In this document: positions 3,649 to 47,147 of the stretch, one piece after another | How the letters are laid out: every line of letters begins with the position of its first letter | Numbering within the stretch: the first letter of the stretch is position 1 | Source of the DNA: a virus | Taxonomy: Duplodnaviria > Heunggongvirae > Uroviricota > Caudoviricetes | DNA: 64,000 nucleotides | Virus record (IMG/VR): IMGVR_UViG_3300021387_000308 | Location: 38,037-102,036 of that record | Strand: one strand, 5' to 3' | Program-made: the position numbers and the translations under genes | The notes under the pieces: model-generated | Database searches by the model: none | What the model was told of the DNA's origin: nothing | The model's input: the letters and a program-made list of their open reading frames with translations, nothing else

Positions 3649-3665
3649 GAGAAAGGATAAAACGA

Positions 3666-6600
3666 ATGGATATTAATGTTAACTTATCTCATCAAACAAT
3701 GAGGGTTGCAACAGATCTAAAGAAGTTAGTCGCTGGCTCATAGAAATTCATCCGTTTCGTTTTTAAACTACCGAGTGAATGGGATGATTTTGATGTTATA
3801 ACAGTTTAGTTTATATAGAATGGTTTGGCAAAATATGATTAGCTTGATGAAAACCATGCTGTATATCTCCCATCAGATCTTGAGCCTGGAGATTTTCTAT
3901 TGTTAATTTACGGCTCAAAAAATAACGGAGAAATTCGAGGGACTGTAAATGCATTACAACTCACTCTTACTCCTGATCAATATATTCCTAGTGCTACTGA
4001 AGTATCTCTTACCGAGAATATGTATGATCAGCTAATAAAAATGGTTACAACCATTGGAAGTGAGCCTGTTACAAGTAGTGATATACGTGGATGGGTTTAT
4101 GATGATTCGGTTGCTATTCTTAGGCAATTTCTCGACAATGGAGATTTAACTGGTTTAACTATTCCAGATAAAACAATTGAAAAACATCATCTCAACGATG
4201 AACTTCAAGCATCCATAGACCGAGCAGATTCTGCACTTCAATATATCCCGGATGGATCAGTAACAAGGTCAAAGGTTGATTCAGAAATTGAAGGACTTTT
4301 TAATACTCTTGAAAACCTCGAAATGACTATCCCAGAAGGTTCTATTGATAAAAGTAAAGTGAATTCTGATTTTGCTGCTACTTTAGATAGGGCAGATTCT
4401 GCCATGCAACCATCTGTCTATGATGTTAATAATCGTGCAACAGATATTTTTAATTATGCTGATAGTAAAGTAGAACCAGTTCAGGCTTTAGCATCAAGTA
4501 TGAGACAGGAAATGTCTAGTGCTTACACTGTTGATGAAACATCTTATGATAGTCTTGGTGCTGCTATTAATGGTGCGCTCACTCAGGCAAGAACTTATGC
4601 TAAATCATATACGGATGTAACTCTTGGTAATTATGTTCCATATAGTGTAGCTATTACTGCTACTCTTCCACCGATTAATCTTGGGCAAGATAGGACTTTC
4701 TATCTCGTACCAAAAGCTTCTGGTAATGGATATGATAAATGGTGGGTTGTTGAAAATCTCGACCATACTAAAGTGTGGGATAATTGGGGCGGTTCTTCTA
4801 CATTAATTGTCACTGAGTTGCCACAGGAAGGTGATGTTGATGTAGATTATATTTTAGCCCAAAATGGAGATTATAAATATTATAAATATATTGATAATGA
4901 ATGGAAAATGATTGCCGGGACTAATAATGTATTTTTAGGTATTGAAGGGCAACATTTTATTATTGGAATTGGTGAGCCTGATAATGATTTGATTACTCAT
5001 GATAATTATGCTGCCACTTTAGGATATATAGATATATCTTCGGAGAACTTGAATTGCTATTTTGCAAATGTAGTTTCTTATGAACCTGATTTTGAATATG
5101 AATGGGATGAACCACATGAATTAGTTGAATTCCCATCCGTTGATAAAGATTATTATGTTTTAGATAATAATATGAATTATGTCCATTTAAAATATAATGG
5201 AGGTCAATTTAATATTGTAGGTTCTTGTACATTTGTAGTAAACAAATTACCGACTGTTGGAATTAGCAATGTAGATTATTTATTATTTAAAGACGGAGAA
5301 TATCAGTATTATAAATATATTAATGATAGTTGGAAAATGATTTCTGGCGGGAGTGCAGATGTAATAGTAAATGAACATTCGATTGATTATTATACTCTTC
5401 CACCATTTACTGATCAAGATTTATCAAAATATATTAATAAGTATTATTTAGATGTAAGTAATTTAAAACTTTATACTGTTGTTCAAAGTAATGATGAATA
5501 TCAATGGCAAGAAACTGTTCTTGTTAGTAACCCAAGTGATAGCAAGGATTATTATATACAATTTGGGAATAATAATCTTCTTCATTTTAGATTTGTTGAT
5601 AATGTATTTATACCTGTTGGTTTTACTCAAACTGAAATTGATTCGATTATTAATCCGCTCAATACTAGGATAAATACATTAACAAATAGAATAGATGGAT
5701 ATGATACTTAGATTACTCAAAATCAAAGCAATATAGCTTCTTTAAATAATACAGTTTCATCTCTTCAGCAAGCTGTTAGTGAGATTGATACAGAGGGTTA
5801 TGAATATTTTGCAGACTATGGGACATATGAAGTTGCTGGGCAAGAAACAGATAATGTTTATAGGCTTCGTAAAGTAAAAGGCAGCGAAGAAGAAGTTGTA
5901 AGTTAGTTTGTGATTCAAGGCGGCGGAGGTGGACAGCAAACTTCTACTAACCTTGTTGTTGAAAGAATTACCTAGTCACCATTAATTGTAACTCCAAATG
6001 ATAATGTGATTCTTGAATTTAGGTATTCTTCTGTAACTAATGATAATCAAAAGGAAGAAATTGATGGTAACTATACATTAAAACTTGGCAATACTGTTAT
6101 TGCAAGTGGTGAATGTATTCAAGGAATAAATTCAATCGATGTAACATCATATTGTACTATAGGTACACAAAGGTTTAGTTTAAATGTTGTTGACCTTGGT
6201 GGTAGTAGTGCCGTTAGAACATTTACTGTGTAGAAGGTAGATGTTCGTATTGAATCTGAATACAATGATAGATATTATAATGAGATTGGGAAATCAGCCC
6301 AATTTACATATACTCCATATGGTGCAATAAATAAGACTATTCATTTTAGTTTGAATGGTGAAGAAGAGACTATTACTACTGCTGCTTCTGGTATATTGCA
6401 ATCATATGCTATTCCAGCCCAGCCACACGGTTCATATTTACTTGATGTATGGGTTACTGCGACTGTTAATGGAACTGATATTGAAACAAATCATATTTAT
6501 AAAGATATAATGTGGTATGATCCAAATATGGATGGACAAGGTAATTATAAATCTCCTGTTATCGGATGTAATTATAGATATGACCATCGTGGAGCGGTAA

Positions 6601-9600
6601 GCGTAAGACAATACGATACTCTTCCAATTGTTTATAATGTTTATGACCCAACAACGAATTATCCAATTGTGCGAAGATATATTGATAATGTACTTGTTGG
6701 TACAGATACCATGGAAACAACTCAGAATACATGGAACTTCAAATCTGACATTGTTGGTGAACATAATCTACGAATTGAATGTAGAGATACCGTTGTTATA
6801 ATTGTTGTAAATGTTACAGAACTTGGTATTGATGTTTCTCCAATTACTGGTGGTCTAGAACTTGATTTCAATCCTGTTGGTATCACTAATAGTTCAGAAA
6901 ATAGAATTTGGTCGAATGATAATTATCATATGACAGTTTCCCAGAATTTTGACTGGGCAAACGGTGGATATAAAACAGATGAAAATGGTAATTCTTATTT
7001 CTTAATAAAAGCTGGAACTACTGCGTCATTTGATTATACTATGTTCTCTGGAGGAGTTGATAATAATCCATCAAGAACTGGTTCTGAAATGAAAATTATA
7101 TTTATGACGGAAAATGTTCAAGATGCTGATGCTGTTTGGTTTAGTAATGTTGAAACAAGAAGCTAGACAGTCGATGAAACAACTGTTACTGTAAATATGG
7201 GTATTCAAATGTCTGCTCATAATGGATGGTTAAAAACAAATAAGGCTAGTGATGTTGATGTATCTGATGGAAGTTCTGATACTGTTGCTGCTACGAATAC
7301 GTATTTGTATATGCCATACAGTGAAGAAGATATTATTGAAATGGATATCAATATAGACACGATTGATCTTGAAAATGAAACTTCTACCGCTTTTGTAATG
7401 TCATATGAAGATGGTGTTCCGTCAAAAGCATATGTATATGATAGAAGTGATAGATTTTATCAGTATGACCCTCAGCCAATCACGATTGGTTCTACTTACT
7501 GTGATGTAAGAATTTATAGATTAAAAATCTATTCTACTTCTTTAACATCAGAGGGTATTATGAGAAACTTTATTGCTGATTCTATGGATTCTACTACTAT
7601 GCTTGCTAGATATGATAGAAACAGTATTTATTATAATCAAGAAACTGGGGAATACTCTCCATATAATACAAATGGTATTTTGAGTCCTGAAAGATTAGCT
7701 CCAATAGTTCCTAATGTAAAGATATTGATGTTGGAAACTGATCATTTTACTACCAGCAAAAAGACATTTGTTAAATCCAATTTAAGATGTATTCATGCTC
7801 CAGGCGGCGATGTTTATCCTGGCGATGAATATTATGATAACTGGTATTTTGAAAATGGATGGCATTCTGGTCAAGGTACTACATCTGACAACTATGGTAA
7901 CTCTGGTAGAAACGTTGACTTTTTGTTTAACTGTGATGGTGTCCATAAACCAAGTGATAAGATAAAAGATCCAGAACCAGATTATATTTCAAAAGTTACT
8001 CTTGGTTATAATACTGAAAATGCATACACTGAAACGGTTACGGACTGGAAGGGTGATTCTGGTAAAATTAGTCTTACAAGGACTTCGATACCAAATAATT
8101 TCTTTAATTTAAAAGTTAATATAGCTTCTAGTGAAAATGCAAACAATGCATTGATGCAAAAGAGGTATACGGATTTCTTACCTTATATTTCTCCAGCAAA
8201 ACGAAGAGATCCTAGGATAAAAAATGATATGGAATTTGTTCCAGCAATTTTATTTATTAAAGAAACAAATCCTGATCTTAGTACTCATAATGAATTCCAA
8301 GATAATGAATGGCATTTCTATGCCCTTGGTAATCTTGGAGATTCTAAGAAAACTGACTATACACGTTCATATGACCCAGAAGATATGAATGAATTTACTA
8401 TAGAAATATCTGATAATACTAAAAATAATGCAACATTCCAAACTGGTGTTTATCAGAAACAAGATGGCTCTTATGGATATGAAACATTCCATCTGATTAA
8501 AACACTTGATAAAGAGGGAGAACTTGTTGTTACTCCAGTATCTGAAGTTTCTATATCTGAGCATATATCTCCTGTTCCTTATGACCAAATTGATGCACTT
8601 TTGTTCTAGCAAGGTACTATTCATGTTATTAATGAAACTGGATTAGCAGAGCATGATGGTGATGAATATGGATATTTAAACATGAGAATCTGGTGTCTTT
8701 ATAATGAGGGATTTGATGGAGATCACTCCTTCGAACCTAGATATGCTTGTTGTGGTGATTATAGAGATGGTAAATTAGTAAATGATTATTCTGGATATGG
8801 TAAATAGCAGGTAAAAACGAATGAAAAGGTTTGGAGAGCATTCTACAAGTGGGTTATCACTTCTACTAATGAATAGTTTGTACAAGAACTTGATCAGTGG
8901 TGCGTAAGAAGTGCTGTAGAATTTTTCTATGCATTCACTTTATATTATACCATGATGGATAATAGAGCAAAGAATACTTTCTGGCATTTTGCAAAGACTG
9001 GTGTTTATAGAGAAGTATCCAGACCTGTTGAAGAATTACTCCATATTTATTGTGAATTAGTAGATGAAGAATATGTTCCAACTGAAGACACTTCAATTGA
9101 TCCAGAAAAAACATATTATACATAGTATGCATTTGATTTATGGTGCTATGATACTGATACTGGTCTTGGAATTAATAATAATGGTGAACTTATTTTCCCA
9201 TATGGTAAAGAAGATACTGATTATAATATTGATGGTGATCCATCTTCTGGTTGGGTATTTAACGGAGCTACTTCTGTATTCTGGTGCAGATTGAGAGATT
9301 TATTATCAAATGAAATAACAGAGACATTTAACAGTGTTTCAGCGGAGTGTTTTAATGCTACTAATCTGATAAATCAATTTGATAAATTCCAAGGATGCTA
9401 TCCAGAAGAAATATGGAGACTTGATGTAGAAAGAAAATATGTAAGGACATATACTGGAAAATCTGTTGATAATTCTATTCCTAAACATGATACTCAGTAT
9501 CTTAGAGATATGATGCAAGGTAGAAAGAAATATCAGAGAAGACAATGGGTTAGAGATTAGGAAATGTATTTTGGAACAAAATATCTTATGAATACTGTTG

Positions 9601-12353
9601 TTGGTGACAATAACCGTATTACATTTAGGTGTTATGACCCAGGTAATGATGTTGTTGTTCCTAAGAATTATTCTCTTAGTATTACACCATTCCAAGATAT
9701 GTATGTATCTGCGATGTTTGGTAATGGTGATCAACGACAAGTTAGGGCAAAAGCTGGAGAAACAGTTGTTCTGAATTTCAGTGTTAGTACAACTACTGAT
9801 ACTTAGGTAACTATTTATGGTGCTAATAGAATTGCGGCACTTAATGATTTATCCGCATGTTATATTGCTGCAAATAACTTCTCAATGGCTACAAAGCTGA
9901 GAAAACTTGTTCTTGGTAATACTACTCCCGGATATTCAAATTCAAGGTTAACTTCTTTAACTCTTGGTTCAAATAAATTGTTAGAAGAACTTGATTTGAG
10001 AAATTGTAATAACTTAACTGGTACGCTTAATTTGGCAGATTGTAGTAATCTTCTTAAATTGTACGCAGATGGTACTAGGATTAGTAGTGTTACTTTTGCC
10101 ACTAATGGTAAAGTATAGATTGCTCATCTTCCACCAACATTAAACACATTGGTAATGAGGAATCTTAATGACCTCCAAGATTTTTAGTGCTCAATGGATT
10201 ATCTTGAATAGTTAACTTTACAAGGAGGCACATTAAATAGTTATGAAGTTATTTCTGATGTAATTGATACTCTTAGTGTAGTATATTTATATGATTTAGA
10301 TTGGACGGTACCGAATTCTGATATTCTTAATCAATTATTAAATCTTGAATATTCTACATTGACTGGTAAAGTATATATTAATGGTGCTACAAGACTTAAG
10401 GAACTTGAAAGATACAATGCAAAATGGGCTGATCTTACTGTCACGTATAATCCTAACTATCTTGTAGAACAATATGCAGTTACTTATGTTAATGATGATG
10501 GTACTACTCTTGGAGTATATTATGTAGACCGTGGTGCCGTCCCGCCAAATCCAGTCGAAGATGGTACAATGGAAACTCCGACAAAAGCAAGTGATGCTCA
10601 ATATACTTACACATTTAGTGGTTGGGATGATATTGAATCTGTAGTACTTGCACCAAGAACTATTAAAGCACAATATTCAGAAACAATTAGAACATATACT
10701 GTAACTTGGTATTCTCGTGAAGGTGTTCCAATTCGTAGCACATAGGCTGAATATGGTTCTGAAGTAGTATACGATGGTAATATTCCAACTCGTACTGATG
10801 AAGAAGCTGCATATTGGTATAATATATTTACTGGATGGGACAAATCTACTGGATATATTACTGGTGATACTGATGTCTATGCTATTTGGGATAGAAAAGT
10901 ATTACCTGTTACTAATAATAACACATTGTTGACGAAAGACCTTAATGATATGAGTCCCGCAGAAATCTATGCTCTTGGTAATGCTTAGGCTATTGATTTG
11001 TCAAATATTACAAATCTGGAAGTGAAAGATTATAAAGATATTGTGGTTGGTAATGATTTTAATTTTAATAATGTAGAATCTGAAGTTCTTCTTGAGAATC
11101 GTTGGTTTGATGGTAAAACACATGTTGATACAAACATTAAATTGTTTAGTGAAGATTCGGAAGATTTTACTCTTGCTATTGATTTTGAATTTTATCAGCC
11201 GACATCAAATGCTACTCTCGTATCTTGCTTCGAAGAAGATGGTTCAGAAGGTTTCAGATTAAGATATAATCAAGGTTCTTCTATTCAGTGGGGTGATAAG
11301 AGTGTAACTGCTGGGCCAGACAGACAACGTAGTATTTGTGTAATCCGACACTTAAAAGGTTCTGATAAATTATATACTTATGTCTATAATACTAACAGTT
11401 ATCAATATGATGATGCTGTAATTAGAACAGAATTAACTAGGACAAGATCTACTACTACTGATTCGGTACTTAGTTTTGGTGCTATCAAATTCCCAGATGG
11501 TGGTTATGATTTCTACGCAAAAGGCTGGATTCACTGGTGTAAGATTTGGTATGCAGATTTAGGTAATGCCAATGCTTTGGAACTTGCACAATGGCCTCAT
11601 GAAACGTGGAGAGCAGAATACACTGGTTTGCAGAATTATAGATTGCCAGGTACTAGTAGATATGCTAGATTATCATTCTCATTAAATAACCTTCTTCTTA
11701 ATGAAATGGTTATGGCATATAGTAGTTCAAATGCTGGTGGTTGGCCCGCTAGTAAGATGAGAGTATGGGAGAATGATAGAATTTATAAAGCATTGCCAGT
11801 ATCTTATAGGGCAATTCTTAAACAAGTAAGAGTATGTTCTAGTGCTGGTAGTATGTCATCCGAAATAGTATATTCTGATGATTATATTTATGCTCCATCA
11901 TTAATAGAAGTTAGTGGCAATTCTTAGATTCCTTATGGAGATGAAATTCAGTCTAGTGGAAGTAACAAGATGATTCCTTGGTATACTAGTGATATTTCTA
12001 GGATTAAGTTCCTTGGTCAATTTGCACCAAGTAATCCAAATACTTTCTATAGTACTGAAGACCCGACAATTAATGATTCTAATAATGTTACTGCTGGAGA
12101 TATTTGGTATAGAAATTCATATGGTACTTACTATATGTTCATACCAAAATCCGAATATGATCGTCATGAGTATAAAGGTGATAATATTGTAGCTTCTAAT
12201 GGTGGCTTATGGTATCAGAGTGCTTATTGGTTTACTAGAACACCAGATGTATCATATAATGAATACTTTAGAGGTGTTGGTAACAGCGGTAATACCTATA
12301 CAATGCTTTGGCCTAATTCTGCTTATGGTGTCAATATTAATTTCTCAGTATAA
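3666..12353 (+). CDS. giant virion fibre/adhesin-like structural protein, 2895 codons, about 21 TAG(Gln) codons
   Basis: ATG 3666 with RBS gaaagga. Frame 3 contains no TAA/TGA from 3666 to TAA 12351-12353 (codon walk checked across the gaps). Track ORFs 3900..5711, 6006..6233, 6351..7166, 7197..8609, 9291..9560, 9564..9806, 9885..10118, 10359..10745, 10998..11927, 11970..12353 are all frame 3 and each ends at TAG. Internal duplicated motif [18 protein letters not shown] / [18 protein letters not shown]. Confidence 0.65.
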
Positions 12354-36950: not shown

Positions 36951-38102
36951 ATGAACGTTTATTTAGATAATGCTGCAACTACACAGATGTTGCCAGAAGT
37001 AATTGATGCTATGAAGTCATATATGATTGAATACTATGGAAATCCATCTGGATTATATACGATTGGATTTAAAACAAAAAATATGCTTGATGATTGTCGC
37101 AAAACTATTGCACAGACTATCAATGTATAGCCTAACCAGATTTATTTCACATCTGGTGGAACTGAGGGAGATAATTGGATTATTAAAGGTGTTGCTGAAG
37201 CGCTGGAAACAAGAGGTCATCATATTATTACTTCTTCTATTGAACACAAAGCAATTCTTAAATCTTGTGAATGGCTTGAAGATCATGGATTTGAAGTAAC
37301 ATATATTGACCCAGATGATCGCGGTTTTATCCATGTATCTGATATTGAAAGTGCCATCCGTGAAGATACTATTCTTGTTAGCATTATGTATGCTAATAAT
37401 GAAGTTGGTACTATACAGCCAATTGAAGAGATTGCTAAAGTATGTAAAAATTATCATGTGTTGTTCCATACAGATGCAGTTCAAGCATATGGTCATGTTC
37501 CAATCAACGCTCGGAAATTTGGTATTGATTTCATGACAACAAGTAGTCACAAATTCCATGGCCCAGACGGTGTAGGATTTGTCTATATTCGTAACCCAAA
37601 AACTATTTCTCAATTTATCCACGGTGGACAACAAGAATCTGGATTCCGCGCTGGAACAGAAAATATGTTGGGTATTGTTGGAATGGCAAAAGCTGCGGAG
37701 ATTGCACATAAAAATCTACAAACTAATATTAATTATATGACATCACTCAGAGATGTGTTTATTGATGAGTGTTTAAATAATATACCAAAGTGTCACCTGA
37801 ACGGTTCTCTCATAAGTAGACTGTGTAATAATATCAGTTTAACATTTGATGGTGTTCCCGGCGAATCTTTGGTAACAATGTTGGATATGATGGGAATAAG
37901 TTGTTCTACTGGAAGTGCTTGTAATTCTTCCGATGAAAAACCATCACATGTTTTAACTGCCATGGGTAGGACTGATGAGTATGCCCATAATACACTCAGA
38001 TTTACTCTTTCTGAGTTGACAACGGCAGATGAGATAGATTATGTTCTTCAATGTTTAAAACGCACTATTTCTGATATTAGGAGGTTATATGGGCAAAAGT
38101 AA
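36951..38102 (+). CDS. class V aminotransferase / cysteine desulfurase (NifS/IscS-like, 383 aa) with 1 TAG(Gln) at 37128
   Basis: RBS aaaaagga then ATG 36951. Frame 3 walk through TAG 37128-37130 to track ORF 37386..38102 checked. PLP-lysine motif SSHKFHGP, active-site Cys motif GSACNS, FTSGGTE motif. Confidence 0.75.
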
Positions 38103-38603: not shown

Positions 38604-39914
38604 CTAAGCTAGGGATGATTTTACCATCTTTTTTTCGGCGCTTTCCATGTAAAATTTTTTCTTATCAAAATTTTGAATGTCGTATGTGTAATGAAGATCA
38701 TTGACCCTTGGAGTGTTACCAATTAGGCTTCCAGCTTCAGTAGCAGATACACCATCAAATCTTAGATAAGAATTAAATGTCCTTCTGATAGCATGAATAC
38801 TTTTGTGTGAATCGAATTTGATCTGCTCACATTTATGATTCATGTATGCAGTAAGGTTTTTACATCTCAGCTTTTGACCGTCAAAAGAAAAAACAAAGTC
38901 ACCCTCTTGACCATATTCGCGCTGTAAATCCCGCATCTTATTCAGAAAGGTATTGATCTCTTCCGTAATAGGAATCGTTCTTGTCTTACCAGTCTTTGTT
39001 TTGGATTGCTCGTAAGTTTTATTGACTACATCATATTTCTCAGATTCACATACTATTATATGGTCGTTGAGAACGTATTTCCAACGAAGTCCAGCAATCT
39101 CACCGCATCTCATTCCAGTGAGTAGTGCAAATTGAACTCCATAAGGATAAATGTAATCTTTCTTGCGCAAGATGTCGGAATTTATTTTGTTGATCAGGAT
39201 AGTCAATTCTTCTTGAGAAAGAGTACGTTCTTCAATAGTTTTTTCATCCGTGTTGTAGAACTTCACGAACTTCTTCTTATCAACAAACTGACACGGGTTA
39301 TCTTGCGGTGGAATAACCTTATCTATAACAGCATTGTAAAATACACCACTGATATAAGAATATAATCCATCTGCTCCTCTCCGCTTAAGATTGAACTTTT
39401 TTATGTTGTTTATCATAAATAGTTCAATATCTTTTGAAGTAATCGATGATAAGTCTGCTCTAGCGAACGGAGTACCGTCAAAAAACCGAAACCAGTCTGT
39501 CTCATAGCGTCTTATACTGTTGTTGGATTTGCCGTATTCTTTCTGCATCTCCATCCACTTGTCATGACCTTTGGAAAAAGTATATGTTTTATCCTCTGGT
39601 TCTTCTTCCCCAGTATAAAAGCGCACTATTAAATCTTCTAACTCTTTCAGAGTTTTCTTACTCTTTTGAACTATCTTGCCATCAACATTAAATCTTGTTA
39701 ACCACCTGTCTTTCTTCTCGTTGTACTTTGGTTCGTATGGATGTTGTAACAGTATACGTTTACGTTTCTCCATCTCGATCAACTCACGTATACATTGCAA
39801 GTCCATATTACCACTTTCTTCAATACTTTTCAATGCTGCATCTAATTCGTTAATATTATTAGGGGTAACCTCTTCGGCTACCCCATTTTTTACCATTTTT
39901 CTACTCATAGGCAT
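38604..39914 (-). CDS. tyrosine recombinase / phage integrase (436 aa), TAG stop
   Basis: Track ORF. Catalytic motifs LLTGMRCGEI (Arg), HAIRRTF (His-x-x-Arg), C-terminal Tyr in LHYTYD. The stop is TAG at 38604-38606. Confidence 0.8.
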   Translation of the reverse strand: MPMSRKMVKNGVAEEVTPNNINELDAALKSIEESGNMDLQCIRELIEMEKRKRILLQHPYEPKYNEKKDRWLTRFNVDGKIVQKSKKTLKELEDLIVRFYTGEEEPEDKTYTFSKGHDKWMEMQKEYGKSNNSIRRYETDWFRFFDGTPFARADLSSITSKDIELFMINNIKKFNLKRRGADGLYSYISGVFYNAVIDKVIPPQDNPCQFVDKKKFVKFYNTDEKTIEERTLSQEELTILINKINSDILRKKDYIYPYGVQFALLTGMRCGEIAGLRWKYVLNDHIIVCESEKYDVVNKTYEQSKTKTGKTRTIPITEEINTFLNKMRDLQREYGQEGDFVFSFDGQKLRCKNLTAYMNHKCEQIKFDSHKSIHAIRRTFNSYLRFDGVSATEAGSLIGNTPRVNDLHYTYDIQNFDKKKFYMESAEKKMVKSSLA

Positions 39915-40186
39915 TACCCAATCATAAATGCAATGAGTTTGTTTACATCGTCCTGATTGTAGGCAATAATCTCAAGTTCTGGGATTTCTCCACCACCAGA
40001 AAAAATATTTGCCAGACTAAAATACTGTGTAAGTTTTGATTTTAAGTTCAGACGAAGATCTTCGCCAACAAGTTCAATCTTACCAGTACAGCTATCAATA
40101 ACTTCAAAAAATTTTTCAATATCATTAATATGATTAATCTTCATTATTCGTTTCTCCTTCTTTATTTTCATCCATAATATTTCCAA
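39914..40186 (-). CDS. hypothetical early protein (90 aa)
   Basis: Track ORF abutting the integrase. Confidence 0.4.
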   Translation of the reverse strand: MEILWMKIKKEKRIMKINHINDIEKFFEVIDSCTGKIELVGEDLRLNLKSKLTQYFSLANIFSGGGEIPELEIIAYNQDDVNKLIAFMIG

Positions 40187-41147
40187 TATCTGTAATCACT
40201 GTCCCAGATCCTGATACAACTGGAAGTTTGCCATCCCACTTAGCAATCTTTTCGTTTTCAATAAGTTCTGGTGTAAGAGATTCTGCAATTAATTTATTTG
40301 CCTCAGCCTGTGCTTGTGCTTTCACACGAATAGCTTCTGCTTCACCCTCAGCTTTAATACGAATCTGTTCAGCTTTGGATTCCGCACTAATCTTTTTAGC
40401 ATCAGCTTCCGCTTGTGCTTTAATGCGAGACTGTTCTGCTTCTGCCTCAACTTGAATCGTTGTCTGCTTATTTGTATATTCAGCAGTTTCAGCAGCAAGT
40501 TTAGCCTGAGCTTTCTTCTCAATGGCACTGTTATAAGCGTCTGAGAAATTAATATTTCCGATTGTCACAGATACAATATTAACAATCTGATTTTTATATT
40601 TTGTATTTAGTGAATTCTGAATACATTCTTTAGCAACTTTTTCAATCTTGGATCGATCAGTTACATCTGTATCATTAAACTGTTTAGTTGCTGCTTTAAT
40701 TCCAGACTCGATAGATGTTGCTTTAATAAGATTAGTATCCCATTCCTCAACATTTGTCCAAATCCATGCTGCATACTCCGCATTGATCTGATAGTCAATT
40801 GCAATATTTTCACAGTACAATTCTGTACGTTCGTTTGTTTCAGACCAAATCTGACCAGAATAGATAATCTCCTGCTGTTTGCAGTTAATGTTATTAATTT
40901 TTTCAACAAACGGAATCTTCCAGTTAAGTCCACTCTGAGTCGGCTTGTCAGAAATCTGTCCATACATTGTTCTCACACCTACATACCCAGACGGTACAAA
41001 GCTAAAAGAGCATCCAAATAGAATTGCTATAAGCCCAACAATTGAAATAAAAATTGGCGCAACTTTTTTTATACTAATCATTAATGCCACGCCACCAACA
41101 GTAAAAATAAAACCACCAATAAGCAAAATCGCTTTAATACTATTCAT
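40134..41147 (-). CDS. SPFH/band-7 (prohibitin/HflK-like) membrane protein (337 aa)
   Basis: N-terminal TM segments, GYVGVRTMYGQI and FSDAYNSAIEKKAQAKLAAETAEY motifs, long Ala/Glu/Lys-rich coiled coil. Confidence 0.65.
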   Translation of the reverse strand: MNSIKAILLIGGFIFTVGGVALMISIKKVAPIFISIVGLIAILFGCSFSFVPSGYVGVRTMYGQISDKPTQSGLNWKIPFVEKINNINCKQQEIIYSGQIWSETNERTELYCENIAIDYQINAEYAAWIWTNVEEWDTNLIKATSIESGIKAATKQFNDTDVTDRSKIEKVAKECIQNSLNTKYKNQIVNIVSVTIGNINFSDAYNSAIEKKAQAKLAAETAEYTNKQTTIQVEAEAEQSRIKAQAEADAKKISAESKAEQIRIKAEGEAEAIRVKAQAQAEANKLIAESLTPELIENEKIAKWDGKLPVVSGSGTVITDIGNIMDENKEGETNNED

Positions 41148-41307
41148 CTAAAATCTCCTCGTTATAAATTGATGTAATTCCAATCATCATTCCACAATCG
41201 AAACATTCATAATAATCGTGGTGAGTTGGGTTCTCATCATCAGGAAACGGTTCACTGATAAGTTCCATAATCCCACCACAATATGGACATAATATTTTCT
41301 TACCCAT
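41140..41307 (-). CDS. small zinc-ribbon protein (55 aa, CPYCGG ... CFDCG), TAG stop
   Basis: ATG overlaps the dUTPase stop (TAATG). Four-Cys motif. Too short for the track. Confidence 0.4.
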   Translation of the reverse strand: MGKKILCPYCGGIMELISEPFPDDENPTHHDYYECFDCGMMIGITSIYNEEILDE

Positions 41308-41747
41308 TAGGTAACCCCTGTAGAGCCAAATCCACCACGGTTGGGGTTATCAAGATTATCTACTTCATTGAAGTGGATTATTGGCTGTTTCTTAACAATT
41401 CTAAACTGGCAGATTCTGTCACCTCTATAGATGGTAGTCTTCCTCATAGCTAATGCTGGGAACCTCCACCAATCATCATTGCCACAATAACTGTGATCTA
41501 TTACACCAAAATGGTTGGTTTGGATAATACCGAATTTTTTAAAAGTACTACTTCTAGGTACGATGTGCGCTTCGTATCCTTCAGGTAATTCCATAGCAAC
41601 ACCGAGATTAATAATTCTGAAGTCACCTGGCAGCATCGTTACAGTTTCAGCTGACCTCAAATCAATCCAATCGCTCTTTTCCCCATCGATATACTCAAGT
41701 TTCGGCATATCCTTGTCAATATACTTAATCTTAATTGTCTCACTCAT
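41307..41747 (-). CDS. dut: dUTP diphosphatase (trimeric dUTPase)
   Basis: Motifs [18 protein letters not shown]. Confidence 0.85.
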
Positions 41748-42090
41748 TCTTATTATCTTCCTTTAATATATTATTTCTAATTAATCTATCAATTATTTCG
41801 TTATATACTTTAACAGTTTTTTCATACACAGAATTGTTGTATCTCACATCTGGATCATAAAATGGTGGATAACAACATCCATCCTCACATACTATGCTAT
41901 ACATAACTATTGGTATATTACTTTCAAAATAAATAATCATTTTAAAGGTTACATAAGGATTCTTGGTATTATCATAGCAATATAAATATCTTTTATAAAA
42001 ATATTCTCCACCATATCTTACAAATCCAGATTTCAATAACTGATCCTGTGATACTTTACTATTAACTTTAAATTTTTTAGGTTCAATCAT
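41740..42090 (-). CDS. hypothetical early protein (116 aa)
   Basis: Track ORF, abuts dut. Confidence 0.45.
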
Positions 42091-42310
42091 TCTTTATCTT
42101 CACCTTATCTTCGCAAGGTATACACGCTCCCCAGATATACCATTTATCACGTACTGAACAATAAACCATGATCTTAGCTTTGTTAGATTCATTAAGTATT
42201 GATTTGGCACAATCTTCACAATCTTTTCCAGCTATAATCATTCCCATTCCTCATCTTCATCATCATCGGTATCATCACCATAGCATCCATACTCTTCGTC
42301 TTCTGGATCA

Positions 42311-42637
42311 TTAGGTTTCTTCGAGAATATAAATATGATTCTTCTTTCCAACGATTTCATATCTTCCTTTCGTAGCATTTAAATATTCGTCATCGGTAAA
42401 TAATACTTCGAATCTATATTTTTCAGTAGAAATCTCTCTGGGTGTCTGAGAGAGGATACCAACCAAACACCCAGTGATTAATAAACTTATTACTACATAC
42501 TGCAATTCTAAATCCGTGTAATAGAAACACTTCATACAAACTACAGCAAATACTACTATTGATAATAATGTCAGAAATAAGATTATGGAAAAGAAGATAT
42601 TAGATTTCATTACTGGATATCTATTTAATATTTCCAT
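42311..42637 (-). CDS. small membrane protein (108 aa, 2 TM)
   Basis: Track ORF, hydrophobic segments. Confidence 0.45.
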   Translation of the reverse strand: MEILNRYPVMKSNIFFSIILFLTLLSIVVFAVVCMKCFYYTDLELQYVVISLLITGCLVGILSQTPREISTEKYRFEVLFTDDEYLNATKGRYEIVGKKNHIYILEET

Positions 42638-42646
42638 AATTACTCC

Positions 42647-45600
42647 TTAACTGCAATGACTAAATCCACAATCTTTGCATGTACTACAGCCACCCTCGAA
42701 TATAAGTTCTCCACCGCATTCTGGACAAATCGCTTTTGTTTTTTGTTTAGGAACTTTTACAACATCATTATTTACAGTTGCTTCTACAACTTTAGTAGGA
42801 GTGATCACATACTCATCGTCTTCATCAAAGATATCATCTTGGATTTCACGATACATATCAATTAATGCATTTGCAATCGCTACTGGGCAACTATTACCTT
42901 TTGATGTATCATGCTTGGTCGCTGTTCTTACAGTATAAGACGGACAAGCTGGAACGCTCATAAGCTGGTCAGCAATAGAATTAATATCAACTCCACCTCT
43001 TGCAGATAATGAAATCAATCTTGAGATTGCTGTAAGGTTACAAAGGCATCCTCCGCTACTACCCTTATTTAAGAAGCATTCTAATAAATCACCAGTATCT
43101 GGATCAAAAAATGCAGAACAATGTAGAGAACCGCAGCCAGTCACTAAATGTCTTTCTTTACCAACGGAATTATTATCAACCTTAATAATCATTCCTCTTT
43201 CTAATTTCTGAGGAATATGTTTTACCTCTTCTTCTGAGTGATCGATTGTTAAAATTCCTGCACGTTTACATCCATCACGGAAGATTGTTACACCTTTAAG
43301 GCCAGCTTCCCACGCTTTCATATAAAGGTCTTCTACTTCTTCAATAGTAAAGCTATTTGGTACATTAACCGTTGAAGAAATACTAGCATCAATATGTTTC
43401 TGCCAGATTGCTTGCATTTTAATGCGTTCTTTATAATCAAGTGTTTGTGCTGTCACAAAGAAATCGGGTAATTCAGAATCGTCATCAATATTGTTTTCAT
43501 CCATATATTTTTTTACAATCGGAGTATAAACTTTATAATACTCATCATGTCCATGAAGCGACTCTGTTTTTCTTGTATAGTAATTTGCAAAAATTGGTTC
43601 GATACCACCAGACACTCCAAGCATCGTAGAAAGTGTTCCAGTTGGGGCAATAGTAAGTAGCTGCGAGTTAGCAAGTCCACAAGAAACATCTGTATCACCA
43701 ACATGCTCACTAAAGAATGCAGATTGAGCAACTGCCTCTGGATGATACTTAGGATAATGACCAATTACTTTTGCAAGTTCAGCAGATGTCTTAATAGCTT
43801 GATATGCCATCTTCTGACCAATCATGTCGCACAGATGGATAGATTCATCACTACCATAACGAACACCCATTTTAATCAACATATCTGCCAAGCCAAAGAT
43901 TCCTAATCCACACTGTCTCCAATCTCTAACAGATTCTCTCTGTTCTTTGAGAGGATGAAGTGGAATACCCTCATCAAGAACTTCATTCAATGCTTTAATG
44001 GCAATATCTACTGTATTTGAAAAATCTTCAAAATCAAAAAGCTTATCTTTAGTTACAAATTCTGAAAGATTGATGGAGCCGAGCAAACACGACCCACCGG
44101 GCGGAAGCGGTTCTTCTGCACAATTATGAACAACAAAACCATTTACAACTCCCCAATGTCTTTCAGGTTCTGTAAAATCATATACTTTTATCTTACCATT
44201 TGGTACTACACTAGTAACTTGCATAGCACGTTTTTTAATCATATTACACAGCTGCTCTCTCTTATACTGCTGATAAAAGCCAATGCAAGCCATAAATTTA
44301 ATAATTTCTTGATATCTTCCAATATTGATATCATAACTTTCGCGGATTTCATAAGTCCCATTTTCAAATTCAATCTTGTGTGGTTTATTTGTTGTAATAT
44401 ATGCATTGCAGATATCAAAATCTTCTTTTAATGTAGAAACTAATTTTTCCGCAAAAGCCTTACATGTGGTTTTATATGAAATTCTTCCACCTTTGTGTGT
44501 ATCATTCTTTTTTATAACACATCCATTTGCGGAATAACAGCCACATAAAAAACTTGATTTTTCTAATCTAGTCCATGTATCGTATGTAGAAGGAAATTCT
44601 CTGTCTGGCAAAATATTAGGAGAAAACCCTAACTTAACTAATTCTGGTTGATAATTTGCTAAATAAATTGCACGTTCTGATTTTTTCGTAAATTCTTCAT
44701 CGGAAAACAAATCCCAGATATCGGTATCTTTCTCTCCAATATTAACTTCGATTCCATCATGATATTTACTATTTAATCTAGTAGTTTGCCCATCACCCTG
44801 AATAAATCCAAGCTTAATAAAATGATTATCAAGATTATGGTTTGAACGAGTTAATGGCATTATATATTTACCAGTTAAATTCTCAGCACGACATTCTTCT
44901 CCATCTAAAGTCATAAATCTATGATCTGGAGTACAAATTACTTCTGTGTTATAGAATTTTACTTTAACAGTATCTTTTTCTCCGTTGCACCATACTTTAC
45001 TTTTTACAACGTTCCCATCAACATTAATAATATAAGGTTCAGTACCGTCAAGCTCTTCAAACGTTTTATATCCATCAACTGTAAGAAGTTTCGAATCTCC
45101 AGAAAAACATGGGTTTACTCCACCATATTTAAATTCAGGATCGCAACTAAGAAGATTCCAATTTTCTATTCTATCCCAGAAAAGCATTCCAGGTTCGGCC
45201 CAATCCCAATTAGACTCACAGATTTTATGAAATAATTCATAAGCATCAACTGTTTTAGTAATCGTTTCTCCAGTTTCTACTCTTGTAAAACTAAGTTCAA
45301 ATGGTTCACGATTTTTTACAGCTGCCATAAATCTATCAGTAATACGAATACTAATATTAGCTTTTGTAACCCTATCAGTATTTTGCTTAATTCCAATAAA
45401 TTCTTCAATGTCTGGATGGTCAACGGGGATTGATATCATCAAAGCTCCTCGTCTTCCCGCTTGCCCAATCAAACCAGTAACCATAGAATACAAATCCATA
45501 AAACTTACTGATCCAGATGTTTCTTTAGCGGCATTATGGACTATAGCGCCTCTGGGTGCAAGTTTACCAATATCAATGCCACATCCACCACCATAAGAAT

Positions 45601-45898
45601 AAGTACGTGCCAATTTCTTAGCACAATCAAAGATTTCTTCGATGGAATCACCAGGAGCAGATATCACATAACAATTTGATAAACTAATTTTTCTACCATC
45701 GTTATTAGTTCCACGATTGGCGAGGATTCTTCCACCAAATAAAAACTTTTTATCAATAATCTGCTTTTTTAATATTTCATTTTTATTGGTAATTCTATCA
45801 AGCCATTCATCAAATGTTTCGCCATTATATTGATACTTTCTTTCCCATATGTCAGTTGCTAATTTATTATCTTTACCAAGCCAATCTTCTACTCTCAT
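42647..45898 (-). CDS. nrdJ: ribonucleotide reductase, class II-like (adenosylcobalamin type), intein-containing precursor (1083 aa; about 754 aa after splicing), C-terminal zinc ribbon
   Basis: Extein junction reconstructs the active-site motif GGVNP-C-AEEPLPPGGSC. C-terminal CPECGG ... CSTCKDCG. Standard code, TAA stop. Confidence 0.7.
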   Translation of the reverse strand: MRVEDWLGKDNKLATDIWERKYQYNGETFDEWLDRITNKNEILKKQIIDKKFLFGGRILANRGTNNDGRKISLSNCYVISAPGDSIEEIFDCAKKLARTYSYGGGCGIDIGKLAPRGAIVHNAAKETSGSVSFMDLYSMVTGLIGQAGRRGALMISIPVDHPDIEEFIGIKQNTDRVTKANISIRITDRFMAAVKNREPFELSFTRVETGETITKTVDAYELFHKICESNWDWAEPGMLFWDRIENWNLLSCDPEFKYGGVNPCFSGDSKLLTVDGYKTFEELDGTEPYIINVDGNVVKSKVWCNGEKDTVKVKFYNTEVICTPDHRFMTLDGEECRAENLTGKYIMPLTRSNHNLDNHFIKLGFIQGDGQTTRLNSKYHDGIEVNIGEKDTDIWDLFSDEEFTKKSERAIYLANYQPELVKLGFSPNILPDREFPSTYDTWTRLEKSSFLCGCYSANGCVIKKNDTHKGGRISYKTTCKAFAEKLVSTLKEDFDICNAYITTNKPHKIEFENGTYEIRESYDINIGRYQEIIKFMACIGFYQQYKREQLCNMIKKRAMQVTSVVPNGKIKVYDFTEPERHWGVVNGFVVHNCAEEPLPPGGSCLLGSINLSEFVTKDKLFDFEDFSNTVDIAIKALNEVLDEGIPLHPLKEQRESVRDWRQCGLGIFGLADMLIKMGVRYGSDESIHLCDMIGQKMAYQAIKTSAELAKVIGHYPKYHPEAVAQSAFFSEHVGDTDVSCGLANSQLLTIAPTGTLSTMLGVSGGIEPIFANYYTRKTESLHGHDEYYKVYTPIVKKYMDENNIDDDSELPDFFVTAQTLDYKERIKMQAIWQKHIDASISSTVNVPNSFTIEEVEDLYMKAWEAGLKGVTIFRDGCKRAGILTIDHSEEEVKHIPQKLERGMIIKVDNNSVGKERHLVTGCGSLHCSAFFDPDTGDLLECFLNKGSSGGCLCNLTAISRLISLSARGGVDINSIADQLMSVPACPSYTVRTATKHDTSKGNSCPVAIANALIDMYREIQDDIFDEDDEYVITPTKVVEATVNNDVVKVPKQKTKAICPECGGELIFEGGCSTCKDCGFSHCS
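44123..45109 (-). mobile_element. intein (329 aa) with LAGLIDADG homing endonuclease, inserted at the RNR active-site cysteine
   Basis: Starts CFSGDSKLLTVDGY (block A), has TPDHRF (block B), LGFIQGDG and FLCGCYSANG (LAGLIDADG motifs), ends ...GFVVHN followed by +1 Cys. Confidence 0.8.
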
Positions 45899-46329
45899 AC
45901 ATATTCTCTCCCATACATTCTCACAAGATCTTCTTCAATAGCCATAGCCTTAGCTTCATGTTTGGTACAGAAACCATTAGCAATCATTGCAGCATCAGAG
46001 AGATCTTTTGCAATCCTATGATAAAGTCTAGCAAGCTTCAGATGGTTTTTGAGTTCAAGCTTTTCAGAACAAACATCAATACCAACCTTTTCATCAAACT
46101 CATCTTTCTCATCACAATAAGCATTGGCTGTGATATTATTTTCTCTCATCAGAAAATCAAATATAGTATACTTACGACTCGCGTTTCTAATCAATCGTTT
46201 ATATTTGTCCTTAATACCAGCCTTGAGATCATTCTCAATACCTTTTTCAACCATCTTACCCTGAACCAGACGAGCTTCCGGGATAACCTTAAATTCTTTA
46301 TTTCTAACATTAACTTTCTTCATAATCAA
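45895..46329 (-). CDS. hypothetical early protein (144 aa)
   Basis: Track ORF, start overlaps the next gene's stop. Confidence 0.45.
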   Translation of the reverse strand: MIMKKVNVRNKEFKVIPEARLVQGKMVEKGIENDLKAGIKDKYKRLIRNASRKYTIFDFLMRENNITANAYCDEKDEFDEKVGIDVCSEKLELKNHLKLARLYHRIAKDLSDAAMIANGFCTKHEAKAMAIEEDLVRMYGREYV

Positions 46330-46604
46330 TCCTCCTGTGCAATTACAATAGCATTATAAATAATTGTTCTCTTACCATCGAGGTCAAATAAAACCTTGTT
46401 TTCATTAGACTCAATATCAATCTTGCCACTATATTCGGCAATTTTTTCACCAGTATTTGCATATACTGTGACGGTTCTATCAATTCCACCGCTAAAATTC
46501 GATAAAATACTTTTTTTATCTCTATTCCATTTAGCGGTACATCCACTAAGGACAAAAGCTGCACCAATCACAATACATGCAATACTAATAATCTTCCTTT
46601 TCAA
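46326..46604 (-). CDS. putative lipoprotein (92 aa; signal peptide then lipobox LSGC)
   Basis: N-terminus MKRKIISIACIVIGAAFVLSGCTAKW. Confidence 0.45.
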   Translation of the reverse strand: MKRKIISIACIVIGAAFVLSGCTAKWNRDKKSILSNFSGGIDRTVTVYANTGEKIAEYSGKIDIESNENKVLFDLDGKRTIIYNAIVIAQED

Positions 46605-46885
46605 CTGTAAAATCCCTCCGTTCTATAAGCGCCGAGTTCACTTACTTTGCGAAAGAACTCTTCAATCTCGAAATAGTCATTGGTAACAGGAGCCAAAGTA
46701 ACGTCTCTCCCACACATTTCCATAACTCCCATCACAGAACGACCATCAACACAAAGTCTTCCACTAATAACATTAACATCAATATTTAAGCTGTCACAGA
46801 TAGCGCAAAATTTATTTACTTTATCTACTGTCAGCCTCATCCTGATTTCGTTCGTCCTGCTGTCCATCAACTTTCTCCAATTCAT
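46601..46885 (-). CDS. HPr-like phosphocarrier-fold protein lacking the catalytic His (94 aa)
   Basis: DGRSVMGVMEMCG resembles the HPr Ser46 region (LKSIMGVMSLG). The region that should hold His15 reads KFCAICDS. Confidence 0.4.
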   Translation of the reverse strand: MNWRKLMDSRTNEIRMRLTVDKVNKFCAICDSLNIDVNVISGRLCVDGRSVMGVMEMCGRDVTLAPVTNDYFEIEEFFRKVSELGAYRTEGFYS

Positions 46886-47147
46886 AAATAGAATTTATTG
46901 TTTCAATCACATAATCTCCAAAAGAATTAATCCCAGAACCAATAATTGCCGAAGTATGCCAACACGCATATAAAGAATCACTAGAAATAAAATTCCAATA
47001 AATTTCTTCGAATTCTTTATAGTCTTCTATAGGCTTATCGGTATCAATAATTGATCCAATTAAGCCATCATACTTATAGTCTGTAACTTCATCATATCTA
47101 GTTCCTTTTCTCCCACTATGATAAATACCTATAATCTTATACTTCAT
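46821..47147 (-). CDS. hypothetical early protein (108 aa)
   Basis: Track ORF in the tiled minus-strand early operon. Confidence 0.35.
   Translation of the reverse strand: MKYKIIGIYHSGRKGTRYDEVTDYKYDGLIGSIIDTDKPIEDYKEFEEIYWNFISSDSLYACWHTSAIIGSGINSFGDYVIETINSIYELEKVDGQQDERNQDEADSR

Follow-up and report, generated by a model that had tools for sequence, protein, structure and literature searches.

A probable class 1 intein with a LAGLIDADG domain at the predicted radical cysteine of NrdJ in a TAG-recoded phage

The window analysed here is the whole stretch of 64,000 nucleotides (positions 38,037 to 102,036 of the IMG/VR virus record IMGVR_UViG_3300021387_000308) from a virus of the Caudoviricetes, and the subject is an intein-like insert in its gene coding for the ribonucleotide reductase (RNR) NrdJ. 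The gene is one open reading frame (ORF) on the minus strand (42647..45898) whose precursor product of 1083 amino acids (aa), followed by a stop codon, matches the RNR barrel model PF02867 (335.9 bits) and the NrdJ model TIGR02504 (458.5 bits). It is composed of three segments, all coded by the minus strand. The N-extein (residues 1–263; 45110..45898) ends in ...PEFKYGGVNP and includes Cys76 (codon 45671..45673). The intein of 329 aa occupies precursor residues 264–592 (44123..45109). The C-extein (42647..44122) starts with CAEEPLPPGGSC, whose first residue is the +1 Cys (residue 593; 44120..44122), and features a TSCPD domain (42854..43114; PF12637, 45 bits) and a cysteine-rich, zinc-ribbon-like C-terminal tail (42650..42727) over which model NF006417 is aligned through its last position.

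The boundaries of the insert are exact. Its first residue is Cys264, Cys1 of the intein (45107..45109), and its last residue is Asn592, or Asn329 of the intein (44123..44125), which is followed by the +1 Cys in a splice junction reading ...VVHN/C; the initial annotation had given the same limits (44123–45109, residues 264–592). Deletion of the insert from the translated ORF joins ...PEFKYGGVNP to the start of the C-extein. The resulting GGVNP-CAEEPLPPGGSC is the catalytic loop GGVNP-C-AEEPLPPGGSC whose restoration had been claimed. The reconstituted intein-free DNA site of 60 bp is CCTGAATTTAAATATGGTGGAGTAAACCCATGTGCAGAAGAACCGCTTCCGCCCGGTGGG, with the junction at CCTGAATTTAAATATGGTGGAGTAAACCCA/TGTGCAGAAGAACCGCTTCCGCCCGGTGGG.

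The host protein is, by its profile matches, a class II (adenosylcobalamin-dependent) ribonucleotide reductase, NrdJ. In a profile scan of the precursor PF02867 gives one match (residues 74–872) that runs across the insert, while TSCPD, LAGLIDADG_3 and, just below its gathering score, Intein_splicing are also matched. Every RNR model scores the spliced extein above the precursor, namely PF02867 (351 vs 336 bits) and the NrdJ_Z equivalog TIGR02504 (479.2 vs 458.5 bits). Because the spliced extein clears the cut-off of this equivalog (399.95), the host is considered a true class II RNR, a firmer assignment than the “class II-like” enzyme proposed initially. The extein-only sequence, whose alignment to NrdJ had been set in advance as a check, matches RNR families and aligns to Thermotoga maritima NrdJ (PDB 1xje) with an E-value of 4e-65. 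In this alignment the N-P-C-A-E loop of the window protein is placed on N320-P-C322-G-E324, Cys604 on Cys333 and Cys76 on Cys134, and the equivalents of Glu324, Cys333 and Cys134 are conserved. In the T. maritima enzyme Cys322 is the thiyl-radical cysteine, and Cys134 and Cys333 form the redox pair. As the +1 Cys is aligned to Cys322, the intein immediately precedes the radical cysteine, which would also serve as the +1 nucleophile of splicing, in agreement with the proposed insertion at the active-site cysteine. The closest named relative of the extein is Blautia hansenii NrdJ; this and the figures given below for the homologues retrieved with the precursor hold among the matches listed. The gene is best annotated as a single NrdJ interrupted by an intein of 329 aa; neither a gene fusion nor a broken gene is an apt reading.

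The insert has the anatomy of a contiguous intein. The N-terminal part of the HINT splicing domain (intein residues 1–94; 44828..45109) begins with block A, CFSGDSKLLTVDG, which starts at Cys1 (CFSGDSKLL), and contains block B, TPDH (residues 60–63; 44921..44932). The C-terminal part of the domain (residues 291–329; 44123..44239) carries block F/G, VYDFTEPERHWGVVNGFVVHN, with the penultimate His328 and the terminal Asn329 (His-Asn codons 44123..44128). All four blocks A, B, F and G named in the initial annotation are accordingly present, and in the intein hidden Markov model search the insert alone scores 35.6 bits on residues 1–67 with TIGR01445 (intein_Nterm; cut-off 24.5). Between the two HINT parts lies a LAGLIDADG homing-endonuclease domain (residues ~95–290; 44240..44827), identified by PF14528 (LAGLIDADG_3; 25.7 bits for the insert alone on residues 185–270, cut-off 22.5), by Foldseek matches and by invariant polar residues. 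Motif 1 is KLGFIQGDG (residues 99–107; 44789..44815) with the canonical Asp106, and motif 2 is LCGCYSANG (residues 188–196; 44522..44548) with Asn195 in the catalytic acidic position. The claim of two LAGLIDADG motifs is correct as to their presence, but the second is devoid of the canonical acidic residue. The residues expected to carry splicing are strongly conserved in the family. Cys1 is found in 65 of 65 aligned inteins, and Thr60 and His63 of block B, Asp311 and His318 of block F and the +1 Cys are invariant in the 65 aligned sequences. The terminal His-Asn is present in 63 of the 65, the other two belonging to a different intein family that ends in AQ. Further conserved cysteines in the family are Cys41, Cys59 and Cys73. 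Two antisense ORFs on the plus strand (44126..44431 and 44921..45235) run opposite the well-supported reading frame of the intein and were therefore treated as spurious.

The predicted fold agrees with this organization. The AlphaFold2 model of the intein, computed with an alignment of 17 family members, has a mean predicted local distance difference test score of 92.9 and a predicted template modelling score of 0.88. Its N- and C-terminal parts are beta-rich and flank a central alpha/beta domain in which the helices predicted at residues 95–106 and 181–192 hold the two LAGLIDADG motifs, each followed by strands, in line with the pseudo-dimeric alpha-beta-beta-alpha-beta-beta-alpha fold of monomeric endonucleases with two motifs. 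The best Foldseek matches in the PDB are the inteins PI-SceI, PI-PfuI and PI-TkoII (E-values from 1e-12 to 1e-6), followed by the free-standing LAGLIDADG enzymes I-Tsp061I, I-OnuI and I-WcaI; the mini-inteins DnaB, DnaE, RecA, gp41-1 and NrdJ-1 are also retrieved. A phmmer search of the intein against PDB sequences gave marginal matches at best (E-value 0.0076). The family profile matches the DnaB intein in the same sequences (E-value 3e-6), as well as the DnaX and DnaE mini-inteins. The bipartite HINT and LAGLIDADG architecture is thereby supported by sequence profiles and by the modelled fold.

The element is very probably a canonical class 1 intein with a LAGLIDADG endonuclease domain, inserted in frame in nrdJ of a large TAG-recoded phage between Pro263 and the radical cysteine. 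With its finger loop N-P-C-x-E interrupted by 329 residues, the precursor of 1083 aa would be inactive as a reductase until the intein leaves, and the activity of the phage NrdJ would then depend on prior splicing. Excision is expected to start with an N-S acyl shift at Cys1, the resulting thioester being attacked by the +1 Cys. Asn329 would then cyclise with the help of His328, releasing the intein, and an S-N shift would join Pro263 to the cysteine to yield a NrdJ of 754 aa with GGVNPCAEEPLPPGGSC. The family is proposed to home, at the DNA level, into intein-free nrdJ or nrdA alleles at the highly conserved NPC codons and to spread via gene conversion triggered by the endonuclease.

The distribution of the family is that expected of a mobile element. 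About 64 homologues have an insert at the same place while more than 50, of 745–764 aa, have none. All the latter are empty-site alleles with a continuous NPCAEEPLP at residue 263–265. The insert is 323 aa long in most intein-bearing homologues and 320–329 aa in a few, one homologue having a mini-intein of 134 aa. Proteins with and without intein are interspersed among the closest relatives of the window extein: the intein is absent from P0037 (extein identity of 87.0%), present in P0001 (86.6%) and absent from P0041 (83%) and P0043 (82%). The nrdJ genes of the IMG/VR phage contigs L006 and L007 are likewise uninterrupted. Inteins and exteins are phylogenetically discordant. The inteins of P0058 and P0065 are 97.8% identical vs 67.8% for their exteins, and those of P0075 and P0084 are 92.6% identical vs 67.3%. 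The inverse is found for the window and P0001, with 66.3% identity between inteins and 86.5% between exteins. The histories of inteins and exteins thus appear partly decoupled within the family and, together with the patchy presence, this is the pattern predicted by the gain-and-loss cycle of a homing element, members other than the window copy showing recent transfer. Around the boundaries a repeat search found no terminal inverted repeats or target duplications, only short repeats at chance level, as expected for homing by gene conversion; a transposon-like insertion was rejected on these grounds. The family is very large: a profile search of 1.84 billion representative proteins retrieved at least 441 clusters (50% identity) at an E-value of 1e-30 or below. 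Among the best 150 of the 441, nearly all clusters with both flanks readable have NP/C(G/A/S)E at the insertion site.

Several observations weigh against the full reading of a splicing intein that is also an active homing element. Intein_splicing (PF14890) scores 34.2 bits, 1.6 below its gathering score of 35.8. The nearest intein to the window copy is ~72% identical among the matches listed and there is, therefore, no sign of a recent move of this copy. Asn195 leaves an acidic metal-binding residue (Asp or Glu) in motif 1 (Asp106) and none in motif 2, which gives one of two sites, and double-strand cleavage may be impaired. Characterised LAGLIDADG enzymes have a metal-binding Asp or Glu at the position of Asn195, namely D20 in I-CreI and D218 and D326 in PI-SceI; the substitutions I-CreI D20N and PI-SceI D218N and D326N are the analogues for impaired cleavage. 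Other comparisons likewise give no sign of recent movement of the window copy. The composition of the intein (G+C content of 0.311, 0.182 at third codon positions) is close to that of the exteins (0.346–0.374 and 0.20–0.23) and so gives no compositional sign of recent import. No tract of raised identity was found at the junction when the window extein DNA was compared to that of the intein-free contig L001 (0.76–0.82 at the junction, 0.80 overall), this flat profile giving no sign of recent conversion between the two. Given Asn195, the mobility ascribed to the window intein in the initial annotation is an inference.

The asparagine of motif 2 is a property of the family and not of the window copy. 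Asn is found at this position in 62 of 64 close homologues, the two exceptions belonging to a different family with DSDG and a C-terminal Gln, and in all 119 representatives in which motif 2 was located among the best 150 of the 441 clusters. The Asp106 position has Asp in 63 of 64 aligned sequences, and the Asp of motif 1 is present in 90 of the 92 representatives of that same set in which it was located. Elsewhere in the endonuclease domain many polar positions show strong conservation. Literature searches found no mention of an Asn in the second LAGLIDADG motif of inteins residing in RNRs. Since the domain is conserved elsewhere and inteins bearing SANG have moved recently, the Asn looks functional rather than degenerate.

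Two alternative readings of the endonuclease were considered. In the first the intein splices while its endonuclease is dead owing to the Asn of motif 2, and the window copy, perhaps with the whole family, homes no more, persisting solely because an essential active site seldom loses such an insert by exact deletion. The catalytic position of Asn195, the distance to the nearest intein (~72%) and to the intein of the closest intein-bearing extein relative, P0001 (66%), and the 134-aa mini-intein of P0064 at the same site, which indicates that endonuclease loss does occur, are all in line with such a fixed passenger. Neutral decay, however, would not be expected to preserve the endonuclease length (323 aa in most inserts) and its polar positions, nor an Asn that is invariant without drift in 119 of 119 representatives, and near-identical SANG inteins sit in divergent exteins (the two pairs described above). 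This reading is considered unlikely.

The second reading is that of an asymmetric but active endonuclease in which the canonical Asp106 site is paired with an Asn site; the enzyme would be a natural nickase of one given strand or would use a non-standard second site. The family is evidently mobile and the Asn is invariant alongside Asp106, Lys213 and many polar residues. Variants of I-SceI and I-AniI are known as nickases. More generally, engineered LAGLIDADG enzymes mutated at a single site are nickases (PMC3943268). A nick could be converted to a break by replication and lead to homing, as with the nicking HNH endonucleases of phage introns, a route that is conceivable but doubtful. Against such asymmetry, the carbonyl of the Asn could coordinate the metal, ordinary double-strand cleavage being kept. 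The proposal that the intein family at the thiyl-radical cysteine codon, with its invariant SANG, purifying selection and recent moves, represents natural single-active-site LAGLIDADG enzymes is a tentative and rather unlikely one. Such enzymes would either nick one given strand or have a non-canonical second site, and their homing would set out from a nick instead of a double-strand break. The family-wide Asn is the only point of wider potential at this locus: a natural nicking LAGLIDADG enzyme, if true, would be relevant to specialists of homing endonucleases and of genome engineering.

Splicing could also be conditional, for instance through a redox-sensitive disulfide between Cys1 and Cys+1, which would make of the intein a post-translational switch of deoxynucleoside triphosphate synthesis. 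Both cysteines are at the splice junction, Cys41, Cys59 and Cys73 are conserved, and functional roles have been proposed for inteins of RNRs and of the replisome (PMC4760082; PMC8772380). Close relatives nevertheless function without the intein, and its patchy presence is that expected of a selfish element, which renders such a switch quite improbable. The idea that the insert does not splice at all, being a tolerated domain or a pseudogenising insertion with an inactive phage NrdJ, has nothing specific in its favour beyond the PF14890 score just below cut-off and the predicted status of splicing, and is highly implausible in view of splicing residues that are all in place and conserved among 65 sequences, of an ORF that is intact over 1083 codons with exteins 87% identical to intein-free homologues, and of a catalytic loop in which retention of the insert would kill an otherwise well-conserved enzyme.

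A class 1 intein with a LAGLIDADG domain, the favoured interpretation, has known counterparts. PI-SceI, the yeast VMA1 intein, has the same bipartite HINT and LAGLIDADG organization, gives the best Foldseek E-value (1.4e-12) and shares the class 1 residues Cys1, His-Asn and +1 Cys. It differs by its host protein, its low identity (13–15%) and an extra DNA-recognition region, and it has Asp in both LAGLIDADG motifs (D218, D326), unlike the window intein. The archaeal NrdJ inteins of Pyrococcus and Thermococcus (NF006207/PRK08332) reside in the same host enzyme. In the alignment to this model the window intein covers positions 931–1241 and the C-extein starts at position 1241, so that one archaeal NrdJ intein ends at the same extein position. 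PI-PfuI (PDB 1dq3) is among the three best structural matches to the window intein; the archaeal inteins are, however, larger (454 aa in the PI-PfuI chain) and their sequence similarity is weak (32 bits). PI-PfuI has acidic residues in both LAGLIDADG motifs, which is again unlike the window intein.

The closest phage systems are those of Nodularia phages, found in nine records that correspond to six distinct cultured phages (three being RefSeq duplicates) and annotated as “intein-containing RnR”. In these phages, vB_NspS-kac65v151 (gp173, MK605242) and vB_NpeS-2AV2 among them, the intein is 42–43% identical to that of the window over all 329 aa, is inserted at the same site of a phage class II-type RNR (...GSNP/CFTGDM...RIAHN/CGE...) and has the motifs GFIQGDG and GCYSANG, the latter with the same Asn. 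In contrast to the window protein, their extein belongs to another lineage of RNRs (1149 aa, with CGEILLRN as C-flank), and the host is a cyanophage that uses the standard code, unlike the window phage with its TAG-recoded late genes. The split inteins NrdJ-1 and NrdJ-2 from ocean metagenomes (Dassa et al. 2009, PMC2677866; PDB 8ubs) are likewise found in a phage-like NrdJ and in the same catalytic loop, and the HINT fold of NrdJ-1 is recovered at Foldseek rank 47. They differ from the window intein by their position one residue further C-terminal (after the Cys), by being split into two genes and by a free-standing, non-LAGLIDADG endonuclease (PMC2677866).

The NP/C position is the most frequent site of contiguous inteins in RNRs according to the literature (PMC2677866). 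RNRs are the second largest class of bacterial intein hosts, with 211 bacterial and 43 archaeal RNR inteins counted by Novikova et al. (PMC4760082), and Dwivedi et al. described several phage RNR genes interrupted by an intein or an intron (PMC3653736). From the literature and from the comparisons with Nodularia phages and NCBIfam models, the window element belongs to an already known and very large family inserted at a textbook site. It extends this family, at the best-known RNR intein site, by one member found in a TAG-recoded phage, and changes no open question.

The RNR genes of Bacillus prophage SPbeta and its relatives are also reported to accumulate both kinds of element, inteins as well as group I introns, at catalytic codons that are conserved (Lazarevic 1998/2001 and Derbyshire and Belfort 1998, as cited in PMC3653736); unlike the window gene these are class Ib genes (nrdE/nrdF), with other insertion positions. 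In the nrdJ gene of a related phage (L008; IMG/VR UViG_3300021400_001615) the TGT codon of the NPC cysteine is immediately followed by a 279-nt non-coding insert with stop codons (5227–5505), a position that corresponds to window 44120/44119 and lies 3 nt downstream from where the intein is inserted. The Rfam group I intron model is matched over its full length, though below threshold (23 bits, E-value 0.0016). The exon sequence CCCUGU could pair with GCAGGG of the intron, leaving a U-G pair at the splice site, and the last nucleotide of the insert is G. The window intein and this candidate group I intron would represent a coincidence of intron and intein at one catalytic codon, as in the Bacillus prophage RNR genes.

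The window protein is on record in a 118-kb metagenome scaffold of ENA. The intein-free P0037 is encoded by a 112-kb phage scaffold that shares the sample-name prefix SHIW14-1 and has an adjacent BioSample number. The local gene order is common to the window and the P0037 contig (144-aa ORF, NrdJ, ~107-aa ORF, dUTPase, Band_7, integrase), a lysin gene being found after the integrase at the P0037 locus. Comparison of window 38604–46329 (minus strand) with L001 2670–9966 gives 87% identity for the NrdJ exteins vs 31–58% for the flanking proteins (144-aa ORF, 108-aa ORF, dUTPase, Band_7 and integrase). As judged from these sequences, the window and P0037 phages are only distantly related, and no other gene compared comes near NrdJ in conservation. 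The gap between nrdJ and its neighbours implies that nrdJ is either unusually constrained or exchanged between phages. A megablast search of window positions 42000–47000 against GenBank phages gave no match.

The gene lies in a standard-code region, as initially annotated. The minus-strand half of the window, nrdJ included, is read with the standard code while the plus-strand half (1..~38100) has long ORFs only with TAG read-through; the plus-strand frame 3651..12353, for example, includes 21 in-frame TAGs among its 2901 codons, and many other frames have 1–11. ARAGORN found no tRNA genes in the window, which consequently has no suppressor tRNA, and no Rfam family reaches its gathering score there, hence no group I or group II intron is recognised in it. 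Among ten neighbouring ORFs scanned with PHROGs, seven have no assigned function and the other three correspond to an integrase, a dUTPase and a Band_7-like lipoprotein.

Other inserts are found in RNR homologues of the window protein. The NP/C site of P0067 and P0073 holds an unrelated LAGLIDADG intein (26–30% identity) with DSDG in motif 2 and a C-terminal Ala-Gln, and that of P0064 the mini-intein of 134 aa without endonuclease mentioned above. P0023 and P0030 have, besides the NP/C intein, a second insert before the cysteine that is aligned with T. maritima Cys134 (window Cys76). In P0023 it is a clean intein of 307 aa (SYSN/CFSSDTEI...NILTHN/CYVIS); in P0030 the pairwise alignment is fragmented and the end junction is the same, NILTHN/CYV. 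Among the family representatives, P0200, P0208 and P0236 have an apparent shift of one residue (NPC/C...HN/SEI), which is the position of the NrdJ-1 split intein, and P0230 and P0247 have the intein in a context that does not look like RNR (..CWA/CT...HN/CLIL..).

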